From: Bdellovibrionota bacterium
Lineage (GTDB): Bacteria; Bdellovibrionota; UBA2428
Length of the DNA stretch: 28,123 nt
Reading direction: 5' to 3'
NCBI GenBank assembly: GCA_039920645.1
Contig: JBDSDI010000139.1
Coordinates: forward strand, 1 to 28,123
A program made the position numbers and the translations under genes. The notes under the pieces are model-generated. The model searched no databases. It was given only the letters and a program-made list of their open reading frames with translations, and was not told the origin of the DNA. Of the stretch, positions 2,544 to 13,870 are shown piece after piece (positions within the stretch are counted from its first letter, which is position 1; each line of letters opens with the position of its first letter).

Positions 2544-5093
2544 ATGTTCTCGTTGGAGCAGATTCAAAATGATCTTCCTCGTTTCGATTCCGGCGAGCTC
2601 TCGCGCCTTTGGAAAATTTTCGAAGAAGGTCGACCCCTTCATTCGACTCTTCTCGCCGCATCCGAGTTGGGGCTGAAGAGCCATCCCGACGAGATCCGCG
2701 AGTTCTACGATACGTGTGCGCGTGGCGCCCACATCGAGAAAATGCGCGAAAAGATCGAGTCCGAATCCTCTGAAGTACTCGAAGCGAGTCCCGCCCTGAA
2801 GAAAGCACTCGATAGCGCTCGCGACAGCGACACACTTTCCCTCATCGAGAAGAAACTCAAACGACGCCACCGCTCGCGCGCCGCCCTCGCCCGCCAGTAC
2901 GGTCTTGAAACTCTGCTCGACGGCATGTGGAAGAAACTCCACGGCCAGGCCTCCGAAACGACCGAGGCTTCTCTCGACGCTGCCGTTCGATCCGAAGTCG
3001 AGGACCTCAACGACAAATCTAAAATCGCGAAACTGCTTGGCGCCCTGCTTGCAGAAAAACTTCTCGATGATTCCGTACTTGGTGAAAATCTTCGCCAGTA
3101 TTTCCTCGCAAAAGCCGATGTCGTCGTCACCAAGAACGAGAAGGCCGCCGAAGATTCGCGCTTCAAGTCCTTCTTCAATTTCCGAGGCCCCTTCGCGCAG
3201 CTCATGCGACGTGATCAAGCCCATCGCTTCCTCAATCTCCGCCGTGGTGTCAGCCAGGGCGACCTGAACATGTCGGTCGAAGGTCCTCGCGCCGATCTGG
3301 AAATGAAGCTCTTCGAAGCCGCTGCTCCGATCGCTCATCGCAGTTCCGCTCCGTCCGAATGGGTAGATTGGGCTCTGGCGACCGTCACTGAAGCGCTCGA
3401 GCAGTCGCTCCTCACCCAGTTCCAAAAAGATGCCTTCAATATGCTCCGTGACTCCGCGGAAAGCGAGATCCTTCCTCCGATCCGCCGTAACCTTCGCCGG
3501 GTTCTAATGAGTCCCGGCCTTGGCCGCCAAATCGTCATGGGCGTCTCTCCATCCGGCAAGAAGACTTGCCGCATCGCCGTGGTCGATCGCGAAGGGCACT
3601 TCAAAGAAACCGCGCTTCTACACCTCCTCGAAGGCGAGAAAAAAGCCGAGACCGAAGCCGTTTTCCTCGCGCTGATCGAAAAACACGGTGTCCAAGCGAT
3701 CGCACTTTCGGATCACCCTGGCGCGCGCGAGATCGAGCGTTTCCTGCACGATCTCTTCCGCACCGTGAAGATCCGTATCCCGGTTTCACTTATGCCGTCC
3801 GAATCTTCGGACGACTACGCGTCCTCCAAGATCGGCCAAGAAGAGTTCCCCGAAATGGAAACTCCTAACCGCAAAGCGGTCTTCGTCGCACGCCTTCTCC
3901 AGAATCCTTTGGGCGAACTCGTAAAAGTGAAACCCAAGAGCCTTGGCGTGGGACAGTTTCTCAGTGAAATTCATCCTGAGAGCCTGAGCCGCACCCTCGA
4001 CGAAGTCCTCGCCGATTGCATTCACGAAGTCGGAGTCGACCTCAACTCGGCATCGAAACCTCTTCTCGCGCGCGTCGCAGGCCTCAACGAAGATCTCGCA
4101 ACCAAGATCATCGCTTATCGCGCGGACAAAGGTTTCTTCTGGGACCGCGATCAGATTCTCGAAGTCGCAGGCGTCGAAGCCCATCATTTCGAATACGCCG
4201 GCCCGTTCCTGCGCATCCGCGACGGCAAGAACCCCTCCGATCTGTCCGACGTTCACCCGAAACACAACAAAGCCATTCTCGAAGCACTGAAACGCCAGAA
4301 AATCGAAAAGTCAGACTGGTCGGCGAAAGCCGAACTTCTGCTTCAGGACGAAAAACTCAAGACACAACTCGGCGAACAACTCCTCGGCCGTATCGTTCAA
4401 ACCATGAAAAATCCTCCCAAGGATCCCCGTGGCGACTTCAAATTCATTCAGTTCCGCGAAGACGTCAAAGACATCCGCGATCTCAAAATGGGAATGGTTT
4501 GTGCGGGACGCGTCTCGAACGTGACCTCCTTCGGAGCCTTCGTCGATATCGGTTTACAACAAGACGGCCTCGTCCACCTCTCCGAACTCAGCAGCACTTT
4601 CGTTCGCGACCCTTTCGACGTGATTCATCCCGGAGACCTCGTCACCGTGAAGGTCATCTCTGTCGATCCCGACAAGAAACAGATTTCCTTCACCATGAAA
4701 AACTTCGCGGAAGTTTCCGAGAAGAACCAGGAAATCGTTCGCCGTCACAAGGAAGTCGTCGACCGCGACCGCGAAGACAGTGCTGCTCGCTCACGCGCGG
4801 AACGTCCACGCAATGAGCAGCAGCAACAGCGTCCCGAGAGAAACGCAGCGGGCCCTCGTCCCGATCGCCCGGCGCGTCCGCAACACGGCAACGGCCCAAG
4901 CGCTGGTCCTCGCAGACCGCGTCCCGACGGCCCACGTCAGAATGCCGGACCTCACAGCGGCGGCAACGACCGTAGACCTCCGCGCGACGGCGGTGGCGGC
5001 AGTAACGGCGGCGCTCGTCCCCAGAAAACCGAAGGTCTCAGGGACAATCCCTTCGCGGCCCTCGCCCAACTTCGCGATCAGCTGAAGCGCTAA
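2544..5093 (+). CDS. tex: Tex/YhgF family RNA-binding protein (YqgF/RNase H-like, HhH and S1 domains) with a low-complexity C-terminal tail
   Basis: EEFPEM...ARLLQNPLGELVKVKPKSLGVGQF, VGVDLNSAS...VAGLNEDLA (HhH), and an S1 domain GRVSNVTSFGAFVDIGLQQDGLVHLSELS. Several family motifs are degenerate (see findings). Confidence 0.88.
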   Translation: MFSLEQIQNDLPRFDSGELSRLWKIFEEGRPLHSTLLAASELGLKSHPDEIREFYDTCARGAHIEKMREKIESESSEVLEASPALKKALDSARDSDTLSLIEKKLKRRHRSRAALARQYGLETLLDGMWKKLHGQASETTEASLDAAVRSEVEDLNDKSKIAKLLGALLAEKLLDDSVLGENLRQYFLAKADVVVTKNEKAAEDSRFKSFFNFRGPFAQLMRRDQAHRFLNLRRGVSQGDLNMSVEGPRADLEMKLFEAAAPIAHRSSAPSEWVDWALATVTEALEQSLLTQFQKDAFNMLRDSAESEILPPIRRNLRRVLMSPGLGRQIVMGVSPSGKKTCRIAVVDREGHFKETALLHLLEGEKKAETEAVFLALIEKHGVQAIALSDHPGAREIERFLHDLFRTVKIRIPVSLMPSESSDDYASSKIGQEEFPEMETPNRKAVFVARLLQNPLGELVKVKPKSLGVGQFLSEIHPESLSRTLDEVLADCIHEVGVDLNSASKPLLARVAGLNEDLATKIIAYRADKGFFWDRDQILEVAGVEAHHFEYAGPFLRIRDGKNPSDLSDVHPKHNKAILEALKRQKIEKSDWSAKAELLLQDEKLKTQLGEQLLGRIVQTMKNPPKDPRGDFKFIQFREDVKDIRDLKMGMVCAGRVSNVTSFGAFVDIGLQQDGLVHLSELSSTFVRDPFDVIHPGDLVTVKVISVDPDKKQISFTMKNFAEVSEKNQEIVRRHKEVVDRDREDSAARSRAERPRNEQQQQRPERNAAGPRPDRPARPQHGNGPSAGPRRPRPDGPRQNAGPHSGGNDRRPPRDGGGGSNGGARPQKTEGLRDNPFAALAQLRDQLKR

Positions 5094-5100
5094 AGGATTT

Positions 5101-6135
5101 TTAGCGCTTCAGGCAAATCAGGCGGCGCGCCTCAACCAAACCTTTAGCTTTTTTGTCTTTCGACTCCGAGGTGTAGACGAGCGATGTTCCGTCGCTGGTG
5201 TAGGTGATCGCTTCTTGTTGCTCGAGAACGTCCGCCACGTCCATCGCGCTCCGACTGAAGTCCTCCGCCTTGATCGGGGCATTACCCGATAGGATCGACG
5301 AATCGAATTCCACGATGCCTCCCAAGGTGATCAAAACGAAAGTTTTGCCGTCGGGCGAGAAGTCGGCGTCGGTCACAAGGAACTTCTTGCGTTCTTTCCC
5401 TGTGGCCACTTTGGCCTCGGGGAAAATGTCTTCGATCTTGATCGTGCGCACATAGGTGAGGGTCGTTTGGGCACGATTCTTCGCTGCGATCGCGACGTTG
5501 GCGTAAACGCTGCGTTTCAAGACGTAGACACGCGGCGAGAGATCGTCGTCCGCGCCCTTTTCACCATCCGCGCGTGTGCGCTTCGTAACGACGTAGACAT
5601 CTCCGCTGTTGGGATCGACCATCATCGCTTCCGCGTTGTGCTGCCTCGCGCCGGTGGCATCGCGACTGTAGTCGATATCGATAACGACCTTCGGCGCGGT
5701 CTGCGCCTTATAATTTTCTTTTTCGGCGACGACGATGAATTTCAGATTCTGACGATTGAAGTTATTGTTGCCAATATCCCCGAGAAAAAGACACCCTTCT
5801 TTTTCGGCGGTGGCTTTCTTGAGATCGGGCGGACAATGTCCGACGTCAATAGTCTCCATGTCGTCAGCATTCACACCATCGACCATCGAGCTTTGCAGAG
5901 GATTCCCGTTCTCGAAGGAGACATGAAATGCCGAGCCAGAACCCGAATCGTTGATGTGGTAATAGCGCTGATTAGGAAAGTCGATGGACGACGAGATGCC
6001 CGAACTTTCCCTGAGGATCTTTGCGCTGAGCAGTGGCACCGGCCCACGATTTTGCCATTTACTGCAGAGAGCAGCGGCGTGGATTTGGGGAGCGACGAGA
6101 GTTGTGAAAATAACGATGGAGAGCAGACGTTTCAT
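5101..6135 (-). CDS. Secreted hypothetical protein, probable beta-propeller
   Basis: Signal peptide (MKRLLSIVIFTTLVAPQIHA) and an AAGGA RBS. Repeating blade-like motifs ESSGIS, HINDSG, LFLGDIGNN, NAEAMMVDP, VTDADFSPDG and QQEAITYTSDG. Function is unknown. Confidence 0.75.
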   Translation of the reverse strand: MKRLLSIVIFTTLVAPQIHAAALCSKWQNRGPVPLLSAKILRESSGISSSIDFPNQRYYHINDSGSGSAFHVSFENGNPLQSSMVDGVNADDMETIDVGHCPPDLKKATAEKEGCLFLGDIGNNNFNRQNLKFIVVAEKENYKAQTAPKVVIDIDYSRDATGARQHNAEAMMVDPNSGDVYVVTKRTRADGEKGADDDLSPRVYVLKRSVYANVAIAAKNRAQTTLTYVRTIKIEDIFPEAKVATGKERKKFLVTDADFSPDGKTFVLITLGGIVEFDSSILSGNAPIKAEDFSRSAMDVADVLEQQEAITYTSDGTSLVYTSESKDKKAKGLVEARRLICLKR

Positions 6136-6177
6136 GGTCCTTCTAGACTACTGCCAAACCACCTCATTAAATCAGGC

Positions 6178-6215
6178 AAAAAAATGACGAATTTCCCATA
6201 GCGGGAAATCCGTCA
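6178..6215 (-). terminator. Rho-independent terminator of the 6242-7822 gene
   Basis: The stem TGACG-ATTTCCC / GGGAAAT-CGTCA (6185-6215) has one mismatch. It is followed on the minus strand by 7 T (A-run at 6178-6184). Confidence 0.8.
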
Positions 6216-6241
6216 CAGAATTTTCTAAATACTGAGAACGC

Positions 6242-7822
6242 TTAACGCAGCAGCGAACGGAGATCCACGGGAGGAGCTTCGTCCACGCCCGATCCGGAAA
6301 CCGCGCGTTGAAGTTCTTCAAGATTGAAGTCCATGCGGTTCTCGTAAGTGCGCTCCATTTGATTTCTCAAACGCTGCTCAGCTTTGTACCACGCTTGCTT
6401 AAGGGACGAATCGTCGCAGCTTGCGAGCTCAGATCCGCGTGCGCCCCAACGAGCCTCGACGCAGTGGTAAGGATCGAAGGATAGATCGAAGAGTCTTTCT
6501 TGAATGTCTCCGAGGTTAAGCGCGACGTCGCGTCCCGCCGAGTTCTTGTAGGAAAGCGGACACGAAGCGTAAGAGTTATCGATGACTCCTCCCAGATCGC
6601 GTTTTAGGTCTGCCACGCTGCCCTTGTAATCAATGAGCTGTGAACCTTCGGCCGTGAGCTGAAGGAACTGCTGCACCTTCTTGTACGCTTCGTGGAAGGA
6701 GGTCTTCAGACGCGCGTCGCGCGAAGGGGTCGAGTAGGTTTCCCAGTCTCCATCAGTTCCGTAGATATTGTAGGGAAGCCGCTCGGGCTGCCCGCGATTA
6801 TTCACACCCGCGACGATCGCTTCGTTTACGGAAGCAACGCGATCACGCGAATCGTAGCACAGAGCTTCGAGAAGGTTCTCGACTTCTTGCAAGGGTTCGA
6901 AGCGCAGGTTGCCTTCGGCGAGTACGACGCGGACGTAATCGTAGTAATCGTATTTCACGCCATCGCGCGAGAAGGTTCCTTTCTTCCAGGCGCCGTCGGG
7001 CGAGCGATCGGTCCCGTAGAACTGAGTGAGGCTGTAGTCCGCGATCTGCGCGTTCGGGCGGCCCATGATCGTGCCGTTCGTAGCGTAGACGATGGGGCGC
7101 CAGTTCTTGAAGCCGGCACCGCTCGTAGGACGCGAGCGCGCAAATTTCTCGCCATAGACGCCGCGGGTGATGGAGTTGTCGGGATGCGCGTCCATGAAAC
7201 GAACCCGTCCGTCGGATTCGATTTTGTAGATCATGGCGACGTGGCCGTTCGGATCGTAGATGATCGTTCCGGGGCGGATGCTGCGACGATCGAGTGCGAC
7301 CGAATAGAAGTCCGTGAAGAGATTGCCTTTGACGTCGTCCTCGGGCGGAACGCGGTACATCGCCGACGATGTGACCGTCATCATGTCGCTGATGGCTTTG
7401 TGAAGAGGCGTGTTGTTGGCTACGGATTGGCGAGCCACGACTTTATTGCCCTGGGGAGAGTAGCGAATGTCGCGCGTCTCGCTGCGAGCTTCAACCTTGC
7501 TCTCGTAGGAGTATGGCAAGTCGTTCATATAGGCGAAGTAAAGACGGAACATATACGGGAGACGCGAACAATCCGAGAATCCATTCTTCAGGAACGAAGG
7601 ATTCTGGTCGCGGTAAGGATTTTCAGGGGCGTCGAAACAACGACCGGTCGTGTTGCAGTGGCTCTCGCCCATCTTTGCGATGAACGCGGAGTAAGCGGCC
7701 TCATCCGCATCGCTCCAACGATCTTTTTTGATGCGCCAGATTCCATCGGTGTGAGCCGAGGCCAACGTGGGAGCGAGAAGAAGAAGAACGCCGAGAAGCT
7801 TCAAAGATTTTTGCGACAGCAT
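6242..7822 (-). CDS. Secreted hypothetical protein with NlpC/P60-like (papain-fold) Cys-His motifs
   Basis: The start was moved from 7852 to ATG 7822 because of the GAGGG RBS and the signal peptide MLSQKSLKLLGVLLLLAPTLASA. It carries the motifs GFSDCSRLPY and IRPGTIIYDPNGHVAMIY. The CDS itself is well supported; the function is inferred. Confidence 0.8.
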   Translation of the reverse strand: MLSQKSLKLLGVLLLLAPTLASAHTDGIWRIKKDRWSDADEAAYSAFIAKMGESHCNTTGRCFDAPENPYRDQNPSFLKNGFSDCSRLPYMFRLYFAYMNDLPYSYESKVEARSETRDIRYSPQGNKVVARQSVANNTPLHKAISDMMTVTSSAMYRVPPEDDVKGNLFTDFYSVALDRRSIRPGTIIYDPNGHVAMIYKIESDGRVRFMDAHPDNSITRGVYGEKFARSRPTSGAGFKNWRPIVYATNGTIMGRPNAQIADYSLTQFYGTDRSPDGAWKKGTFSRDGVKYDYYDYVRVVLAEGNLRFEPLQEVENLLEALCYDSRDRVASVNEAIVAGVNNRGQPERLPYNIYGTDGDWETYSTPSRDARLKTSFHEAYKKVQQFLQLTAEGSQLIDYKGSVADLKRDLGGVIDNSYASCPLSYKNSAGRDVALNLGDIQERLFDLSFDPYHCVEARWGARGSELASCDDSSLKQAWYKAEQRLRNQMERTYENRMDFNLEELQRAVSGSGVDEAPPVDLRSLLR

Positions 7823-7910
7823 GCGGCCCTCATAGCGGAACGCATAATGCACTGCAACAAATTCTATTTGGGACTGCTCTAAAGTAACGAAATTACGCGG
7901 AAAGTGTCGA

Positions 7911-8738
7911 TCAGACGCTCACTCCAAAATCGCGTAAGGCCTCGTTAAGCGTCGTTTTTTTATCAGTCGACTCTTTGCGCTCGCCCACAATCAACGCGAC
8001 GGGAACATGATATTCGCCGCCGGGAAATTTCTTGGGGCGGGAGCCGGGAATGACCACCGAGCGCGGGGGTACGTAACCTTTGTACTCTTTGGCTTCGGAC
8101 GAACTCACATCGATGATTCGCGTGGACGATGTGAGTACGACGTTCGCGCCCAGCACCGCAGCGGTTCCGATGCGCACGCCTTCGACGACGATACAACGCG
8201 AACCGAGGAACGCATCGTCTTCGATAATGACGGGAGCGGCTTGCGGAGGCTCGAGAACGCCGCCGATGCCGACGCCGCCGCTCAAGTGCACACGCGCTCC
8301 GACTTGGGCGCAGGACCCGACCGTCGCCCAGGTGTCGACCATGGTGCCTTCACCCACATAGGCGCCAATGTTCACGAACGAGGGCATGAGAATCGCGCCG
8401 CTCGAGACATGCGAACCGAAACGCACGACCGCGCCGGGAACCACGCGCACGCCTTTCATCTGTGAAAGGGTCTTGAGAGGAATCTTGTCATGGAAATGGA
8501 AGGGACCGACATCCATCTGCTCCATCGGACGAAGAGCGAAATAAAGCAGGATCGCCTTCTTGACCCAGTCGTTCACTTTCCAGCTTTCGGAGGTGAGATC
8601 ATACTCGGCCACGCGTACGCTTCCATCGTCGAGCGCCGTGAGCGTTTCGAGAACCGCACTGCGAACGTTGTCGACTTTGAGAAGTTCGCGGTTTTCGAAG
8701 GCCTGACCGATGAGAAGTCTTTGATTGTCGTCCATCAC
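7911..8738 (-). CDS. dapD: 2,3,4,5-tetrahydropyridine-2,6-dicarboxylate N-succinyltransferase
   Basis: WKVNDWVKKAILLYF, DKIPLK, VRVVPGAVVRFG, MPSFVNIGAYVGEGTMVDTWATVGSCAQVG, GGVLEPPQA and C-terminal LNEALRD. The start is GTG 8738 or ATG 8735. Confidence 0.96.
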   Translation of the reverse strand: MMDDNQRLLIGQAFENRELLKVDNVRSAVLETLTALDDGSVRVAEYDLTSESWKVNDWVKKAILLYFALRPMEQMDVGPFHFHDKIPLKTLSQMKGVRVVPGAVVRFGSHVSSGAILMPSFVNIGAYVGEGTMVDTWATVGSCAQVGARVHLSGGVGIGGVLEPPQAAPVIIEDDAFLGSRCIVVEGVRIGTAAVLGANVVLTSSTRIIDVSSSEAKEYKGYVPPRSVVIPGSRPKKFPGGEYHVPVALIVGERKESTDKKTTLNEALRDFGVSV

Positions 8739-8780: not shown

Positions 8781-9470
8781 TTAACCGAGTTCATCGTTCG
8801 TGCCGGCGAAAAGCAGACCCGCAAGCAGGGAATCGCGATGCGTGCGCCAGGTCTTATCGGGACCAGAATCACGTTCGATCTCGAGGGTAATCGTAGGAAT
8901 TTTGCGCTCCCAGCCGGCCCAGGTTCCGAAGGAGCCCGGAGTGGGATAACCGATGTCGTCCGTGATGATGTACTTGCACTCGTTGGCCATAACCTCGGCG
9001 AGCTTACGCGCGGGTCCGTTGTAATTAATCATCGGTTCCCAGGTGTGCATCGTGACGATGGCATGCGGAGAAAGCTTGCCGATGATCGCGATGAGCGTCT
9101 GGGCTTCGAACTCGGAACCCGCGCTCGGGCCGGGCTGATAACGTTCTTGGCGAGCGACCGGATCCCAATCTTTGGTGGGCATGTTGCGATTGAGATCTAC
9201 ACCGCGACCGTTCGTACGCTGATTGAGGGCACAACCGTCGGGGTTAAGTCGAGGAATCACCCACAGCGACGCGACGCCTTCGAGTTCGCGCCAGAGTCCG
9301 GAACGCACGAATTCTTCGACGAGGAAAAAGCCTTCCGGCTCGTCGCCGTGCACGCCGCCCATGAGCAAAAGATTCTTCGATCCGCGTGTGAGTTGGAAAA
9401 GCTCGATCTTGCGTCCGCCCTCGGTGGGACCGAAGGATTCGTAGGCGTGAGTTTTTATTTCTGGAGTCAT
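8781..9470 (-). CDS. mpaA: M14 zinc carboxypeptidase, MpaA-like murein peptide amidase
   Basis: GGVHGDE (HxxE zinc ligands), NPDG, RTNGRGVDLNRN, MHT, GYPTPGSFGTW and TLE (catalytic Glu). The start was set at ATG 9470 to avoid overlap with the upstream gene. Confidence 0.82.
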   Translation of the reverse strand: MTPEIKTHAYESFGPTEGGRKIELFQLTRGSKNLLLMGGVHGDEPEGFFLVEEFVRSGLWRELEGVASLWVIPRLNPDGCALNQRTNGRGVDLNRNMPTKDWDPVARQERYQPGPSAGSEFEAQTLIAIIGKLSPHAIVTMHTWEPMINYNGPARKLAEVMANECKYIITDDIGYPTPGSFGTWAGWERKIPTITLEIERDSGPDKTWRTHRDSLLAGLLFAGTNDELG

Positions 9471-9477
9471 CGCGTGC

Positions 9478-11505
9478 TCAAGTGTGCTGGGTCCGAAGCC
9501 GCTTGGCAAGTCCCACGATGATCTCAAAACGCTTCGCACTGAGCATGAAACAAGCGCCCCATTCGCAGAGTTCGAATTCCAGCCGCTCGTGTTCTACGAC
9601 GAGGACTTCAGAGGGACGATAGCCTTTTTCTGCGCATTTCAGCAGGAACTCCCGTTTCTCTCCCGGGGGAACTTTGACCGCAGCACCGCGCGCGACGATC
9701 TCCAACTGATTAAGCATATACGTGAGAATAACAGGATGGCGATCGCTGATGCGAGCGCCGATCCGTAGATCCTTCCAAAAACTCTCTTCGAGATCCGCTC
9801 GAGGTCTGAGCATCAGCTCGCGGGCCACGACGCCCATGTAGGTGGAATAGGCCGACGGGTTGGCGCCGTCTTCGTCTTGCAGCTCGCTCCACGGGGTCCC
9901 GAAACGCGATGATTCGCGACGCCTCGGTAAGAGATTTCCTTCGGCGTCGCGGAAGTTTTTTTCGATCCAATCGATGCGACTTCGCGCCTCGCGATCGAAA
10001 CGCATCTCAAGATCCAGAGGTAAGGCCGAATAAAGAGTTGCCGACTGCAACGCTTCGACGAGCGCAGCGTGGTCTTCGAGCAACGCTTCCTCGAAAGCCA
10101 CATCGGCATAGTAAATATGCGCAAGATCCTCCGGACGCGGAGATTTCACGAGCAAATATTCCAAGGTCTTGAGAGCCGCTCCACGCAGACGCGTTGAGAA
10201 GAGCACGTCATCTGCCGAAAATGCATAGGACGCCTGAAAAAGTGCCGCGGCCATCCATGCATTCCACGAGACCAGGACCTTTTCGTCGCGCAGAGGAGCA
10301 ATGCGTCGCTTGCGGACATCGTAGAGTTTTTGCTTCAGTCGTTTGATTTCCGGATTTGACCACAGCTCCACGTCTTGCGCGTGCTTAAGGCGAAGCACGT
10401 TCGTGCCTTCCCAATTTCCGCCCGGACGCACGTCGAAGATTTCCGAGAAGAGTCCTCCTTCAGAAATTCCGAGAGCTTGCGAAATTTCAGGTCGGCTCCA
10501 CACGAAGAATTTTCCTTCGACGCCTTCGCTATCGGCATCCTGCGCTGCAGCCCAGGCCCCCGACTCGAGACGCATCTCCGTTTCCAAGTAGTCAAGAATT
10601 CCTTCCACCACCCCACGAGCGAGTGGCGAGCGCGTCGCGAGAAAATCTTCGGCATAGGTCTGCACGAGAAGCGCCTGATCATAAAGCATCTTTTCGAAGT
10701 GCGGCACGTGCCACTCTTGGTCGGTGCTGTAGCGATGGAATCCTCCACCGAGATGATCCCACATTCCTCCGTAGGCCATGCCCTTTAGCGTCTGTTCTAC
10801 GGCGTGGTTCAGAGAAAGCTTTCGTCCCGGATCAGTTGCGAGCTCCGCCGCGCGCAGAAGCGCCGATGTCGCGTGAGAACGTGGAAATTTCGGAGCGCCC
10901 CCGAATCCGCCCCAGATCGGATCGAAGTTTCTCAGTTGCAGCTCGCCAACCTTCTCCATCCAGGCGTGCCATCTGCGCGAGAAATCCTGCGATCCGAAAC
11001 TTCCGGCAAGAGCCGCATCACCGGCGATTCCTTGTTTCATGTGATCAAGGACCTGTTTGCCCTGCGCTTCGATCTGTCGGGGATCCTGCGCCCACACGTG
11101 AGCGATATTGCTGAGCAGCTGGATGACCTGCGCTTTGGGAAAATAAGTTCCGCCGAAAAAAGGCGTGCGATCCGGAGTCGCGAAGATGTTCAGGGGCCAC
11201 CCGCCGCGGGCGACCATCGTGTGAAGGGCGTCCATATAGAACTGATCGACGTCGGGATGTTCCTCGCGATCCACTTTGATCGCGATAAATGACGTGTTTA
11301 AAAGTTGGGCAACTTCGGCATCCTCGAAGCTCTCGTGCTCCATCACGTGACACCAGTGACAGGTCGAGTAACCGATCGAAATCAGGACGGGCTTGTTTTC
11401 ACGTTTTGCCGTCTCGAACGCCTCGGGCGACCACGCCCACCAGTGAACGGGATTGGTGGCATGTTGCCGAAGATAAGCGCTTTTTTCCCGGTCGAGGCGA
11501 TTCAT
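9478..11505 (-). CDS. yyaL: Thioredoxin domain-containing protein YyaL/SPATA20 (DUF255 plus alpha/alpha barrel)
   Basis: [80 protein letters not shown] and [10 protein letters not shown]. The start was set at ATG 11505. Confidence 0.92.
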
Positions 11506-11632
11506 TCGAGTCTCACAAAAAAACAATTTCTCAGTCCCGACAATGTGGAGTCTTCTCAATCCTACGAAATTTTCTTGCATTGCGTTGCTGTCTAAAGATA
11601 TGACACTTTCACAATTAGAAGGAGGACATCAA

Positions 11633-12082
11633 ATGTCTCGTATTGTGAAACAAATGGTCGTTCAAGTCTGTGTATTAGCAACCGTTATGGTTGGATGCAG
11701 CGTTTTCGCTTCCGAATTCGATCCTAAAACCGGCGAACTCGTAGCGCCCGACGCACTCGTCGTTCGTGAAGACGTTCACGGCGAACGCGTTCTTCTTACC
11801 GTCGAAAAAGCTCCCAAAGAACTCAAAACCGAAGCCGATATGAAGAATCTGGCGATTGCCGCTGAAAAAGCAGCTGCAACTGTCGACGCTTCCGAAGGTG
11901 GCGCTGAAGGTTCTGGCCCCAGCGAATTCGATAAGACCTCCGGAACGGCGGCGTGGTACTACTGGTACTACCCTAACAACTACAGCTATAACTACTATTA
12001 CAGCTACGGTTGCTACAGCTATTACCCCGTCAGCTACTACAACTACGGCTACTACCGTTACTACTACTACTACCGTTGGTAA
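11633..12082 (+). CDS. Secreted 149-aa protein with a Tyr-rich C-terminal core
   Basis: AGGAGG RBS before ATG 11633, a signal peptide ending VFA, and GCT/GAA/AAA/CGT-biased codons. The last 42 aa contain 23 Tyr and 3 Trp. A terminator follows. Confidence 0.85.
   Translation: MSRIVKQMVVQVCVLATVMVGCSVFASEFDPKTGELVAPDALVVREDVHGERVLLTVEKAPKELKTEADMKNLAIAAEKAAATVDASEGGAEGSGPSEFDKTSGTAAWYYWYYPNNYSYNYYYSYGCYSYYPVSYYNYGYYRYYYYYRW
11954..12079 (+). repeat. Low-complexity (TAC)n-rich tract encoding the Tyr-rich core
   Basis: Imperfect TAC/TAT triplet array, all in one frame, including (TAC)5 near the 3' end. Confidence 0.85.
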
Positions 12083-12122
12083 TTGCTCGTTAGCATCGCT
12101 CGCGACAATGAGCTAACCTAAG

Positions 12123-12158
12123 ACGCCGCGTGACCCGAAAGGGCACGTGGCGTTTTCT
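12123..12158 (+). terminator. Rho-independent terminator after the Tyr-rich gene
   Basis: 13-bp stem (ACGCCGCGTG-CCC / GGG-CACGTGGCGT, one bulge and one G-U pair), a GAAA loop, then TTTCTATTT. Confidence 0.75.
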
Positions 12159-12170
12159 ATTTGGAGATGA

Positions 12171-12491
12171 ATGCCAACTGCCCTCGAAAAACTGCGCGGA
12201 CAAATCCTGGTCGCGCCTTATCCCGACCTCGAGCCCCACGTGAAGCGTGGCTCCTTCATTCTTGTTTCTACGAACCTCGACCTCGCCGAAGTCGCACTGA
12301 AGATTGAGACCAACGACACGGCTTATATGAGCGGACTCATTGAATCCGGCTTGCTCGTGAAGTCGACCGAAGCCGACCTGAAAGACTGGAGACGCGATAA
12401 ACGTTTCTTTAAGTTCCTCATCGTTCAGCCCTTCGTCGTCGCCCAATTCGTAATCCTGCCTCCAGCATCGGATCCCAAAGACCTTAATTGA
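12171..12491 (+). CDS. DUF2288 family protein
   Basis: The pattern DLEPHVKRGSFILVSTNLDLAEVALKIETND...FKFLIVQPFVVAQ matches my recollection of DUF2288. GGAG RBS. Confidence 0.75.
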   Translation: MPTALEKLRGQILVAPYPDLEPHVKRGSFILVSTNLDLAEVALKIETNDTAYMSGLIESGLLVKSTEADLKDWRRDKRFFKFLIVQPFVVAQFVILPPASDPKDLN

Positions 12492-12516
12492 CACTCTGCG
12501 ACAATTTCGCTAGCTC
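12488..12516 (+). promoter_or_regulatory. Putative sigma70-type promoter (TTGACA-17-TAGCTC), 7 nt before ATG 12524
   Basis: Perfect -35 hexamer, which contains the TGA stop of the upstream gene. The -10 element is weak. Confidence 0.45.
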
Positions 12517-12523
12517 TAGTCTT

Positions 12524-13870
12524 ATGATGAAGCTTAAGAGCAGTCTTTGGACCCTCACGGTCTCCGCAACATTCATTTTTTCAAGTACTTATGCACATGC
12601 TGAGCTGCGCGTGCGAAACGCGCGCGAACTTCGCAACAGCTACGGACTTTCGGAAGCCTCGCCTCGTATCGACGAGCTCAAAGGTCTCAAAGTCGCCATC
12701 CTCGACAACTCTTTTGAAGGCTTCTTGCAGAACCGCGACAGCCTTCCCGAGAGCGCGGAATTCATCCGCGGCCCTCTCAAAGTTCCACCGGTCGGAGGCT
12801 CCACCCAAAGCGCCGGTCATGGACTCCTCATGGCCCAAGTGGTCTGGGCGATGACGGGCAGTCATCCCGAAGGTCCAAAATTCTACCTCGTCGATGCCAA
12901 CGGATTGAGCAACCTCAGGGCCGCGATCGACACCGTCATCAACCTCAAAGTCGATATCGTGCTCTACGCTTCGACGTGGGAGACGGGCGGCAACTATGAC
13001 GGCCAAGGCTTCATCAACGCGGCTGTCACACGCGCCGCCCGCGCCGGGATTCTTTGGGTCAACGCCGCCGGTAACGACCACGGGATGACTTACACCGGCC
13101 GCATCTCGACCGATCCGAAAACCGGCGCACTTCGCCTTCCGGGCGACGGCGGTATGCTGAGCTTCACGAACAAGCTCACGAACAATCCCGTCAAGCTCAC
13201 GCTGAGCTGGACCGACTACAAGAACGAAGAAAACGAGCAGACGCAAAAGGATCTCGATTGGGAACTTCAAGACTGGACCGGCAAGCGCGTCGCACTGAAA
13301 AATTTAAGCCAAGGATCGAAATCAACCTGCGGTGAAACTCCGAGCTACGCCCGTGGAGCACGCGAGAATTCGCTGCATCCTCGCGAACAGGACGAAGTTC
13401 AGCTTCAGGAAGGTGTCTACCACCTACGCGTTCTCGACTGTTCGGGGAACTTCGTACAAAGCGATCGCATCCGTCTCGTGGTGCAAAGCCCTAAAGGTGA
13501 CTCTATCGAAATGCACGAAGCCAACGGCGCCTACGAGATCAACCCTCCTGCCGATAACGATAACGTGATCACGATCGGAGATCTTTCACCCGTGTCTTCT
13601 CGGGGCCCTACCCTCGACGGACGTATGAAGCCCGACTTCCGCATGCGCGACTCGCGCGTCGAAATGAGCGACGGTCTAAGCATCCCCATGGGCTCGAGCG
13701 TTGCTTCGGCGATCTTCGCCGGCATCGCGACCCAGCTCATGAGCCAAGAACCCCGCCTCTCCAAAGACACGCTCATTCGCTACCAGAAGAGATTGCTTTC
13801 AAGCCAAAGCCCTGCGAATGGCGTCGGTCCTGAGTGGCGCACGCCGGACGCGTCCGAATTGGGTCGCTAA
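12524..13870 (+). CDS. Secreted S8 (subtilisin-family) serine peptidase
   Basis: Signal peptide; catalytic Asp (VAILDNSF), His (GHGLLMA), oxyanion Asn (NAAGND) and Ser (GSSVASAIFAG); also SSRGPTLDGRMKPD. ATG 12524/12527 is preferred over the TTG at 12488. Confidence 0.88.
   Translation: MMKLKSSLWTLTVSATFIFSSTYAHAELRVRNARELRNSYGLSEASPRIDELKGLKVAILDNSFEGFLQNRDSLPESAEFIRGPLKVPPVGGSTQSAGHGLLMAQVVWAMTGSHPEGPKFYLVDANGLSNLRAAIDTVINLKVDIVLYASTWETGGNYDGQGFINAAVTRAARAGILWVNAAGNDHGMTYTGRISTDPKTGALRLPGDGGMLSFTNKLTNNPVKLTLSWTDYKNEENEQTQKDLDWELQDWTGKRVALKNLSQGSKSTCGETPSYARGARENSLHPREQDEVQLQEGVYHLRVLDCSGNFVQSDRIRLVVQSPKGDSIEMHEANGAYEINPPADNDNVITIGDLSPVSSRGPTLDGRMKPDFRMRDSRVEMSDGLSIPMGSSVASAIFAGIATQLMSQEPRLSKDTLIRYQKRLLSSQSPANGVGPEWRTPDASELGR

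Follow-up and report, generated by a model that had tools for sequence, protein, structure and literature searches.

What becomes of a small exported bacterial protein whose last 42 residues are more than half tyrosine? The question is raised by a gene at positions 11633-12082 (+ strand) of contig JBDSDI010000139.1 (28,123 nt; 'the window' hereafter means this whole stretch of DNA), which belongs to a metagenome-assembled genome (MAG; 2.56 Mb, 82% complete) of a Bdellovibrionota bacterium, GenBank assembly GCA_039920645.1, and the sequence of which occurs in three rhizosphere metagenome runs. The answer we hold to be probable, though far from assured, is that the Bdellovibrionota possess a two-gene maturation module in which this product serves as the substrate, and in which a secreted subtilase of peptidase family S8, encoded nearby, would free the aromatic tail as a peptide. 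The argument is built on the close association of the two genes across the phylum, on a precisely spaced motif at the start of the tail and on a model of the two proteins in complex.

The gene and its product

The putative precursor gene comprises the following features:

11620-11625, + strand: Shine-Dalgarno sequence AGGAGG, 7 nt 5' of the ATG, read off the sequence
11633-12082, + strand: putative precursor gene, with ATG at 11633, 149 codons and a stop codon at 12080-12082
11633-11710, + strand: predicted Sec signal peptide (residues 1-26), cut after VFA, from alignments and the family logo (A60-x-A73 before [GS]-E-L-D)
11711-11722, + strand: SEFD (residues 27-30), the first copy of a [GS]-E-[LF]-D motif, at the mature N-terminus; E28 and D30 are nearly invariant
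11723-11920, + strand: acidic pro-region (residues 31-96) with a Gly/Ser/Glu linker at its end, from the AlphaFold2 (AF2) model and composition
11921-11956, + strand: junction motif S-E-F-D-x7-W (residues 97-108), the predicted S8 docking and cleavage region, from the alignment and the complex model
11954-12079, + strand: aromatic tail (residues 108-149), ending in Trp, from its composition, the four beta-strands of the AF2 model and the invariant Y141, Y143 and Y146
12120-12156, + strand: hairpin of an intrinsic terminator, with a U-run extending to about 12165, from RNA folding

The tail consists of 42 residues, among them 23 Tyr, 3 Trp, 4 Asn, 4 Ser, 2 Arg and a single Cys, with no Asp, Glu or Lys. 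Given the 2.7% Tyr of eleven other genes in the window, the probability of at least 23 Tyr in 42 residues arising by chance is about 2e-25. The 81 residues between signal peptide and tail (27-107, pro-region and linker) contain 17 Asp plus Glu, 9 Lys plus Arg and 14 Ala, with an isoelectric point of 4.5. A first-pass annotation, made from the bare sequence, had described just such a core of 55% tyrosine lacking acidic residues, preceded by a signal peptide, an acidic Ala-rich pro-region and a flexible linker; both the composition and the layout are borne out, and the latter is conserved family-wide. The AGGAGG ribosome-binding site it had named is likewise present. Its claim that the gene has its own terminator also stands, convincingly so: the hairpin at 12120-12156 is GC-rich and comprises 16 bp, with UUUUCUAUUU directly 3' of it, and the 83-nt stretch 12083-12165 folds with an energy of -36.3 kcal/mol (z = -4.2 relative to shuffled sequences). 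A simple terminator scan did not pick up this hairpin. The codon usage said to be typical of high expression leans only slightly that way, Tyr being encoded by TAC and TAT in a ratio of 20:3 compared with 89:47 elsewhere (Fisher p = 0.05, borderline).

Three other interpretations of the sequence were considered and rejected. The signal peptide is of the signal peptidase I type, with the cleavage site between VFA and SEFD; a lipoprotein signal based on Cys22 (in VGC) is disfavoured because this residue is unconserved and the family site is A-x-A. A microsatellite origin does not fit the precursor DNA, which has three short local repeats only. Finally, relative to four homologues, the tail exhibits synonymous to non-synonymous differences of 9:5, 8:6, 12:8 and 9:12; as in three of the four comparisons synonymous changes are no fewer than non-synonymous ones, the Tyr reading frame is taken to be the selected one, rather than an artefact. 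An open reading frame (ORF) at 11856-12116 (+ strand), which overlaps the tail, arises from reading the TAC-rich DNA in another frame, which yields a Thr-rich product; it is an artefact and not a gene.

A family with a conserved junction

A word-indexed search identified 12 homologues of the small protein, and a 35-member profile matched 394 clusters (at 50% identity) with E <= 1e-3, and 225 with E <= 1e-10, among 1.84 billion representatives. Within the phylum, the profile has matches in 46 of 401 sampled genomes, representing 26 of 204 genera, with almost every complete Bdellovibrio genome among them; the relatives that carry a name are one MAG labelled 'Bacteriovorax stolpii' and one from the Pseudobdellovibrionaceae. 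The protein matches no Pfam family at E <= 0.01 and no NCBIfam family at E <= 1, and the same is true of a distant homologue. Nothing meaningful resembling its predicted structure was returned by Foldseek against the PDB and AlphaFold clusters, by VIA-align against 48,161 chains (best Z 4.0) or by the features and structures of the ESM Atlas. Literature searches combining 'Bdellovibrio' with tyrosine-rich terms gave nothing relevant, and no paper was found on the family. The earlier statement that no characterised family has this architecture therefore holds, and neither the family nor its double E-L-D motif and aromatic payload have been described before.

In the homologue search that the first-pass annotation had called for, together with a check on conservation of the tail, every member retains an aromatic tail. 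Across 35 diverse members, R45, E98, D100, W108, Y141, Y143 and Y146 are invariant. Motif and tail statistics were drawn from the best 150 representatives, with the junction and tail counted in 144 and the N-terminal motif in 140. The motif [GS]-E-L-D stands immediately after the A-x-A signal peptidase site, with E-x-D found there in 116 of 140, and recurs a median of 63 residues downstream (range 56-77). From this second E-x-D to the tail the spacing is exactly seven residues in 137 of 144, following the pattern [RQ]-[DE]-[ST]-[SG]-x-[SE]-[SA], and the tail then opens with Trp in 135. For the double use of the motif (11711-11722 and 11921-11932 in the window), possible reasons are cleavage by a protease at a further site, docking, binding of a metal or an ancient duplication inside the protein.

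The tails themselves vary between 27 and 132 residues in length (median 48), and are composed of 39.6% Tyr, 11.7% Gly, 9.1% Trp and 8.7% Asn, with Asp, Glu and Lys together accounting for about 1% and aliphatic residues for <2%. A conserved G-x-Y-x-Y-x-Y-Y block is followed by a variable C-terminal stretch of 2 to about 30 residues, the last residue being Trp, Tyr or Phe in 116 of 144. Certain lineages have Gly/Trp or Gly/Tyr repeats in place of the Tyr-rich tail; tails of GWG and GYG units, for instance, are found in the partner ORFs of one family of the phylum (loci L037, L039, L041 and L055, in genomes G038, G146, G174 and G125). In these tails, composition is thus better conserved than sequence. 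Second, weaker copies of the precursor, both orphans, occur in one genus of the same family as Bdellovibrio (G243:C1:1741382-1741837 and G339:C6:134109-134588).

A secreted S8 subtilase accompanies the small protein

Downstream of the putative precursor gene lie two further genes:

12171-12491, + strand: DUF2288 gene, 106 aa, no signal peptide (Pfam PF10052, E = 1.3e-20)
12524-13870, + strand: secreted S8 subtilase, 448 aa (Pfam PF00082), 440 bp downstream of the precursor gene, with an alternative TTG start at 12488

The first-pass annotation had treated the tyrosine-rich protein as the product of a stand-alone, monocistronic unit, which has to be corrected in that the S8 gene is its partner. 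When two scans of the phylum were compared by hand, an S8 gene was found on the same contig, at a distance of at most 2.1 kb, in 45 of the 46 genomes with a precursor match. It mostly lies directly downstream on the same strand, in neighbourhoods that otherwise differ, and this extends to distant homologues. The S8 subfamily itself is present in 95 of the 401 genomes. Of 20 S8 loci at which the profile detected no precursor, 19 adjoin an ORF with an aromatic tail, most of these with a recognisable signal peptide and 11 with the E-L-D junction. The sole locus lacking such a neighbour (L047, G119:C7:1100-8400) belongs to a genome that is 67% complete and encodes an S8 protein only about 30% identical. 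The protease is the only gene to travel with the precursor, no third gene being kept across contexts.

The catalytic triad, D61/H99/S392, is unchanged in 21 of 21 aligned S8 orthologues. Asp61 follows the signal peptide by about 35 residues, the orthologues being alike in this respect and having a signal peptide in every case read; because so few residues precede the catalytic Asp, these enzymes have no I9 propeptide of their own. A search of PDB sequences with the protease found nothing, and the C-terminal extensions of longer orthologues contain no Pfam domain. The AF2 model (predicted local distance difference test score (pLDDT) 85, predicted template modelling score (pTM) 0.86) includes a beta-rich, jelly-roll insertion at about residues 190-385, between the oxyanion Asn region and Ser392. 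Its top 11 fold matches in the PDB are all CspA, CspB and CspC structures, with template modelling scores of 0.52-0.55 and E values down to 3e-15.

The DUF2288 gene is found between precursor and protease only in the window's own family, where four other loci share it. Its stop codon overlaps the upstream TTG start candidate of the S8 frame, and the two genes may be co-transcribed behind the precursor's terminator. An ORF on the - strand at 12090-12494, overlapping the DUF2288 gene, is a frame artefact and not a gene.

Predicted structures and predicted docking of the junction in the protease cleft

The AF2 monomer model of the small protein has a mean pLDDT of 78 and a pTM of 0.63. In the pro-region it predicts a beta-hairpin (residues 41-46 and 52-57, with the invariant R45 inside) and a helix (67-80), with pLDDT values of 86-92 over residues 41-80. 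Over residues 91-100 the value is 56, indicative of a flexible linker. The tail is modelled as four strands (108-113, 120-125, 128-138 and 141-148), with pLDDT values of 68-77 for residues 101-120 and 84-93 from residue 121 on.

When the two mature chains were modelled together, the complex scored 0.80, compared with 0.00 for the best of three controls; the mark applied to this score is reached by 51 of 78 solved complexes and by 2 of 108 mismatched pairs. On the precursor side, the confident interface is formed by residues 95-111, G-P-S-E-F-D-x7-W-Y-Y-W, plus four tail residues. On the protease side it comprises DNSFEG (61-66), GHG (98-100), the oxyanion AAGN (181-184), IPMGSSV (387-393) and parts of the jelly-roll. 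The linker predicted to dock corresponds to the flexible, least confidently modelled stretch of the monomer, which would make it accessible. The complex model thus speaks for a junction that docks at the S8 active site, where the protease would then be expected to cut and release the tail.

The same model fits equally well with an inhibitor lying in the cleft, and the small protein could instead regulate the protease, acting as a substrate-like inhibitor or folding helper supplied in trans that holds the enzyme inactive until the two proteins have left the cell, with the tail as an anchor or plug. The strict co-occurrence of the two genes would suit a chaperone and its client, and the S8 orthologues lack an I9-type propeptide; the clostridial Csp proteases, the nearest solved folds, keep their prodomain bound in the active site. 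The C-terminal end of the pro-region does sit in the cleft of the modelled complex as the end of an I9 propeptide would. However, the confident contacts involve only the linker and first tail residues, the folded N-terminal part taking no share, and the latter has a beta-beta-alpha arrangement, as opposed to the beta-alpha-beta-beta-alpha-beta fold of I9 (about 75 residues); no match between the small protein and the I9 propeptide was found by Pfam, Foldseek or VIA-align. Regulation would also leave unexplained an extreme aromatic tail of 27-132 residues in every member, and we think it unlikely.

A role for the intact protein is another interpretation. Tyr-rich and Gly/Tyr-rich proteins are typical of structural or cross-linked materials, such as those of spores, eggshells and hair (for hair proteins, PMC2528016). 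By analogy, the small protein might be a component of the envelope or surface, for instance a Tyr-rich and perhaps cross-linked coat, which the protease only trims or turns over; the monomer model, in which the pro-region and the four-stranded tail form one compact fold, would accommodate this. An invariant, precisely spaced junction with a predicted fit to the protease cleft instead points to site-specific processing, and in the contexts read the pair is not accompanied by any gene for an oxidase, peroxidase or tyrosinase. A structural role for the uncut protein is accordingly rather improbable, and release of the tail by the S8 protease remains our preferred interpretation.

Expression in Bdellovibrio bacteriovorus HD100

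In the model predator B. bacteriovorus HD100, the orthologues are Bd0450 (Q6MQL5; NC_005363 423626-424024) for the precursor and Bd0449 (Q6MQL6) for the protease. Bd0450 shares the signal peptide, G-E-L-D, E-L-D-x7-W and Tyr-rich tail, with the S8 gene directly downstream; it differs in being only about 30% identical to the window protein and in having no DUF2288 gene in between, and annotation of the two genes goes no further than 'hypothetical protein' and 'putative protease'. By RNA sequencing, Bd0450 rose from 0.76 reads per kilobase per million (RPKM) in attack phase to 197.9 in the 3-h growth phase, and Bd0449 from 0.77 to 66.1, both being called growth-phase specific (PMC3627812, Table S1). 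Ribosomal and ATP-synthase genes reach 3,000-8,600 RPKM in growth phase in the same table (PMC3627812), such that the level of Bd0450 is moderate rather than very high, and the abundant expression expected in the first-pass annotation is not apparent in this orthologue. On microarrays the pair was uninduced at 30 min and gave about 2-3-fold higher signal in host-independent growth (PMC2797640). At the protein level, Bd0449 falls into a 'peak at 3 h' predation cluster, after which its amount sinks to less than at the start (PMC12546842), and a study of the extracellular proteases of a host-independent strain includes it in the list of that strain's proteases (PMC3898049). No paper was found that discusses Bd0450, and Bd0449 features in main text only in one protease table.

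Expression during growth inside prey, together with loss of the protease from cells after prey lysis, would be compatible with the freed tail being an effector directed at the prey, either making the prey inner membrane leaky or mimicking the C-terminal signal of outer-membrane proteins so as to engage the assembly or PDZ-protease machinery. Trp- and Tyr-rich peptides favour membrane interfaces, and most of the tails end in an aromatic residue as such mimicry would need. Known pore formers and cationic antimicrobial peptides are unlike these tails, which are nearly uncharged and lack aliphatic residues, and the conserved positions are fixed relative to an internal Gly, not to the C-terminus, beyond which extensions vary. 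Moreover, prey are dead long before 2-4 h, and the patchy distribution of the protease in the phylum indicates that the system is not core to predation. An effector role is hence very unlikely.

Comparison with known systems

A secreted precursor paired with a secreted S8 convertase encoded beside it has precedents in LanA/LanP, AbpT/AbpP and CspB/pro-SleC, and the defining features of each are missing from the present module. Similar in arrangement are the ABP systems of Gram-positive bacteria, consisting of the toxin AbpT, the S8 protease AbpP and the immunity protein AbpI (PMC12582261, PMC9424270). As here, a Sec-exported precursor is strictly associated with an adjacent, co-exported S8 protease; the corresponding figures in the Bdellovibrionota are 45 of 46 and 19 of 20 loci, with signal peptides on both window proteins. 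A flexible loop of AbpT was likewise modelled within AbpP's active site, a prediction confirmed by N-terminal sequencing (PMC12582261), and cleavage frees an active C-terminal fragment, much as release of the tail is proposed here. However, AbpT combines a BetaH domain, a seven-stranded sheet with a central helix (PMC12582261), with an enzymatic toxin domain, whereas the small protein is modelled as a two-strand hairpin, one helix and a four-strand tail, with no match to a Pfam family or fold and a low-complexity aromatic payload. Nor is there an equivalent of the immunity gene in these Gram-negative predators, as no third gene is conserved and DUF2288 is confined to the window's family.

In class I lanthipeptide clusters, a secreted S8 peptidase of the LanP/NisP type, encoded beside a small precursor, cuts off the N-terminal part of the latter outside the cell. 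The adjacency of an S8 peptidase, conserved across the phylum, is shared with these clusters. Differences are the lack of LanB, LanC and LanM, none of which was found by Pfam in 17 of the larger ORFs of the window or in the called genes of four other loci; a core that is not rich in Cys, Ser and Thr, its single Cys being replaced by Tyr in homologues; and a Sec signal in place of LanT export. The likeness is relevant to a suggestion of the first-pass annotation, that the small protein is the precursor of a ribosomally synthesized and post-translationally modified peptide (RiPP), its Tyr-rich core being modified by enzymes encoded elsewhere. A leader and core beside an S8 gene do recall both lanthipeptide and cyanobactin clusters, and the protease has a weak, sub-threshold NCBIfam match to PatA/PatG (20 bits, with the cut-off at 421). 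Set against this, a Sec signal would carry the chain, still unmodified, away from the RiPP enzymes, which act in the cytoplasm, the contexts read show no conserved modifying enzyme beside the pair, and the supposed leader is a folded region of 80 residues, making such an origin extremely improbable.

Csp proteins are site-specific pro-protein convertases, CspB being responsible for cutting pro-SleC. The S8 protease of the window resembles CspB, CspA and CspC (PDB 4i0w, 9pr9 and 6mw4) in having a jelly-roll inserted in a subtilase catalytic domain. It differs in showing only 11-16% sequence identity to them, in lacking a prodomain of its own, which Csp proteins have, and in carrying a Sec signal; Csp are spore proteins of Firmicutes.

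High-Gly/Tyr animal proteins, including keratin-associated proteins and the YGGW/YGGY-type NLP and CNC peptides of nematodes, are dominated by Tyr, Gly and Trp and have few charges. Family members with GYG or GWG repeats come nearest to these, the likeness being purely compositional, with no homology and no dedicated protease partner on the animal side.

Neighbouring genes

Divergent from the precursor gene, at 8781-11580 (- strand), the window encodes a 700-residue thioredoxin protein of the DsbH/DUF255 type, behind which lies an M14 carboxypeptidase. Both were considered as partners and rejected, as they are kept only in the window's family, at the four loci sharing DUF2288 and one more. In Bdellovibrio, a 2-oxoglutarate-Fe(II) oxygenase is encoded two to three genes upstream of the precursor (L004 1705-2679; Bd0452 in HD100), and Bd0452 is 11.5-fold higher in host-independent cells (PMC2797640). 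It was rejected as part of the module and is probably unrelated, there being no counterpart among the window ORFs scanned. Secretion or nucleator genes of the CsgG, CsgE or CsgF type, as found with curli, are absent from the window and from four other contexts.

A proposed maturation pathway

The data are consistent with the following pathway. The small protein would be exported by Sec, and signal peptidase would leave [GS]-E-L-D as the N-terminus. The acidic N-terminal part, with its hairpin and helix, may then keep the uncharged aromatic beta-sheet of the tail soluble. The co-encoded, propeptide-less, Csp-like S8 protease, secreted likewise, would dock on the flexible [SG]-E-[LF]-D-x7-W junction and cut there, freeing a peptide of about 6 kDa (42 residues here, 48 at the family median) in which Tyr, Trp, Gly, Asn and Ser account for almost every residue. 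In the model predator, the pair would be made during growth inside the prey and not in the free-swimming attack phase. Two further proposals of the first-pass annotation can be weighed here. Release of the core after export is argued for strongly, if indirectly, by the near-obligatory secreted S8 neighbour and the complex model, the cut itself being what we infer from them; chaperoning of the tail by the acidic pro-domain is compatible with the compact AF2 unit, which falls short of proof.

Once freed, the peptide would most likely act through bulk physical chemistry, that is by stacking or self-assembly, by sticking to surfaces or at membrane interfaces. Recognition by a sequence-specific receptor is less probable, given that the composition of the tail is conserved far better than its sequence.

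A number of observations weigh against tail release by the partner protease. Family members have so far yielded no cleavage product, no peptide and no phenotype, and the complex score, being a measure of model confidence, cannot separate a substrate from a substrate-like inhibitor. The pro-region and tail are predicted to form one compact unit, in which form the protein might work intact. In the window, a terminator and a cytoplasmic DUF2288 gene part the precursor from the protease; in four genomes of the family with GWG and GYG tails (G004, G013, G022 and G077) the two genes are divergently oriented; and no S8 match lies near the second precursor copies of G243 and G339, which may be paralogues served by a single protease. 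Reportedly, roughly two thirds of HD100 genes are growth-phase specific in the RNA sequencing set, because of which the co-regulation of Bd0450 and Bd0449 is weak evidence. Q6MQL5 was not among the tandem mass tag proteome rows covered, which were part of the tables, an uninformative absence for a tail free of Lys and Arg, and the window's own sequence occurs in no RNA run among the runs listed.

A bolder and more doubtful proposal is that the module makes a new kind of product: an unmodified, ribosomally made mini-protein of nearly pure aromatic composition, with a removable acidic cap to hold it in solution and its own convertase to release it in place, which could be deployed in the prey during growth, for instance as a self-assembling Tyr-ladder matrix, a glue or an agent at membrane interfaces, with [GS]-E-L-D as a new recognition signal. 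We know of no described bacterial counterpart of an almost uncharged peptide with a tyrosine content of 40-55%. The S8 protease is found in about a quarter of the Bdellovibrionota genomes sampled, and at nearly every locus checked an aromatic-tailed partner is adjacent. Among these genomes is that of the model predator HD100, for which genetics, time-resolved proteomics and imaging exist and in which the two genes are still a 'hypothetical protein' and a 'putative protease'. Should the tail self-assemble or stick, it would represent a new motif for biomaterials; should its target be the membranes or envelopes of prey, it would count as a new factor in predation. In both cases, E-L-D-x7-W would stand as a new site of recognition by a convertase, and a curated model of the family would be worthwhile.

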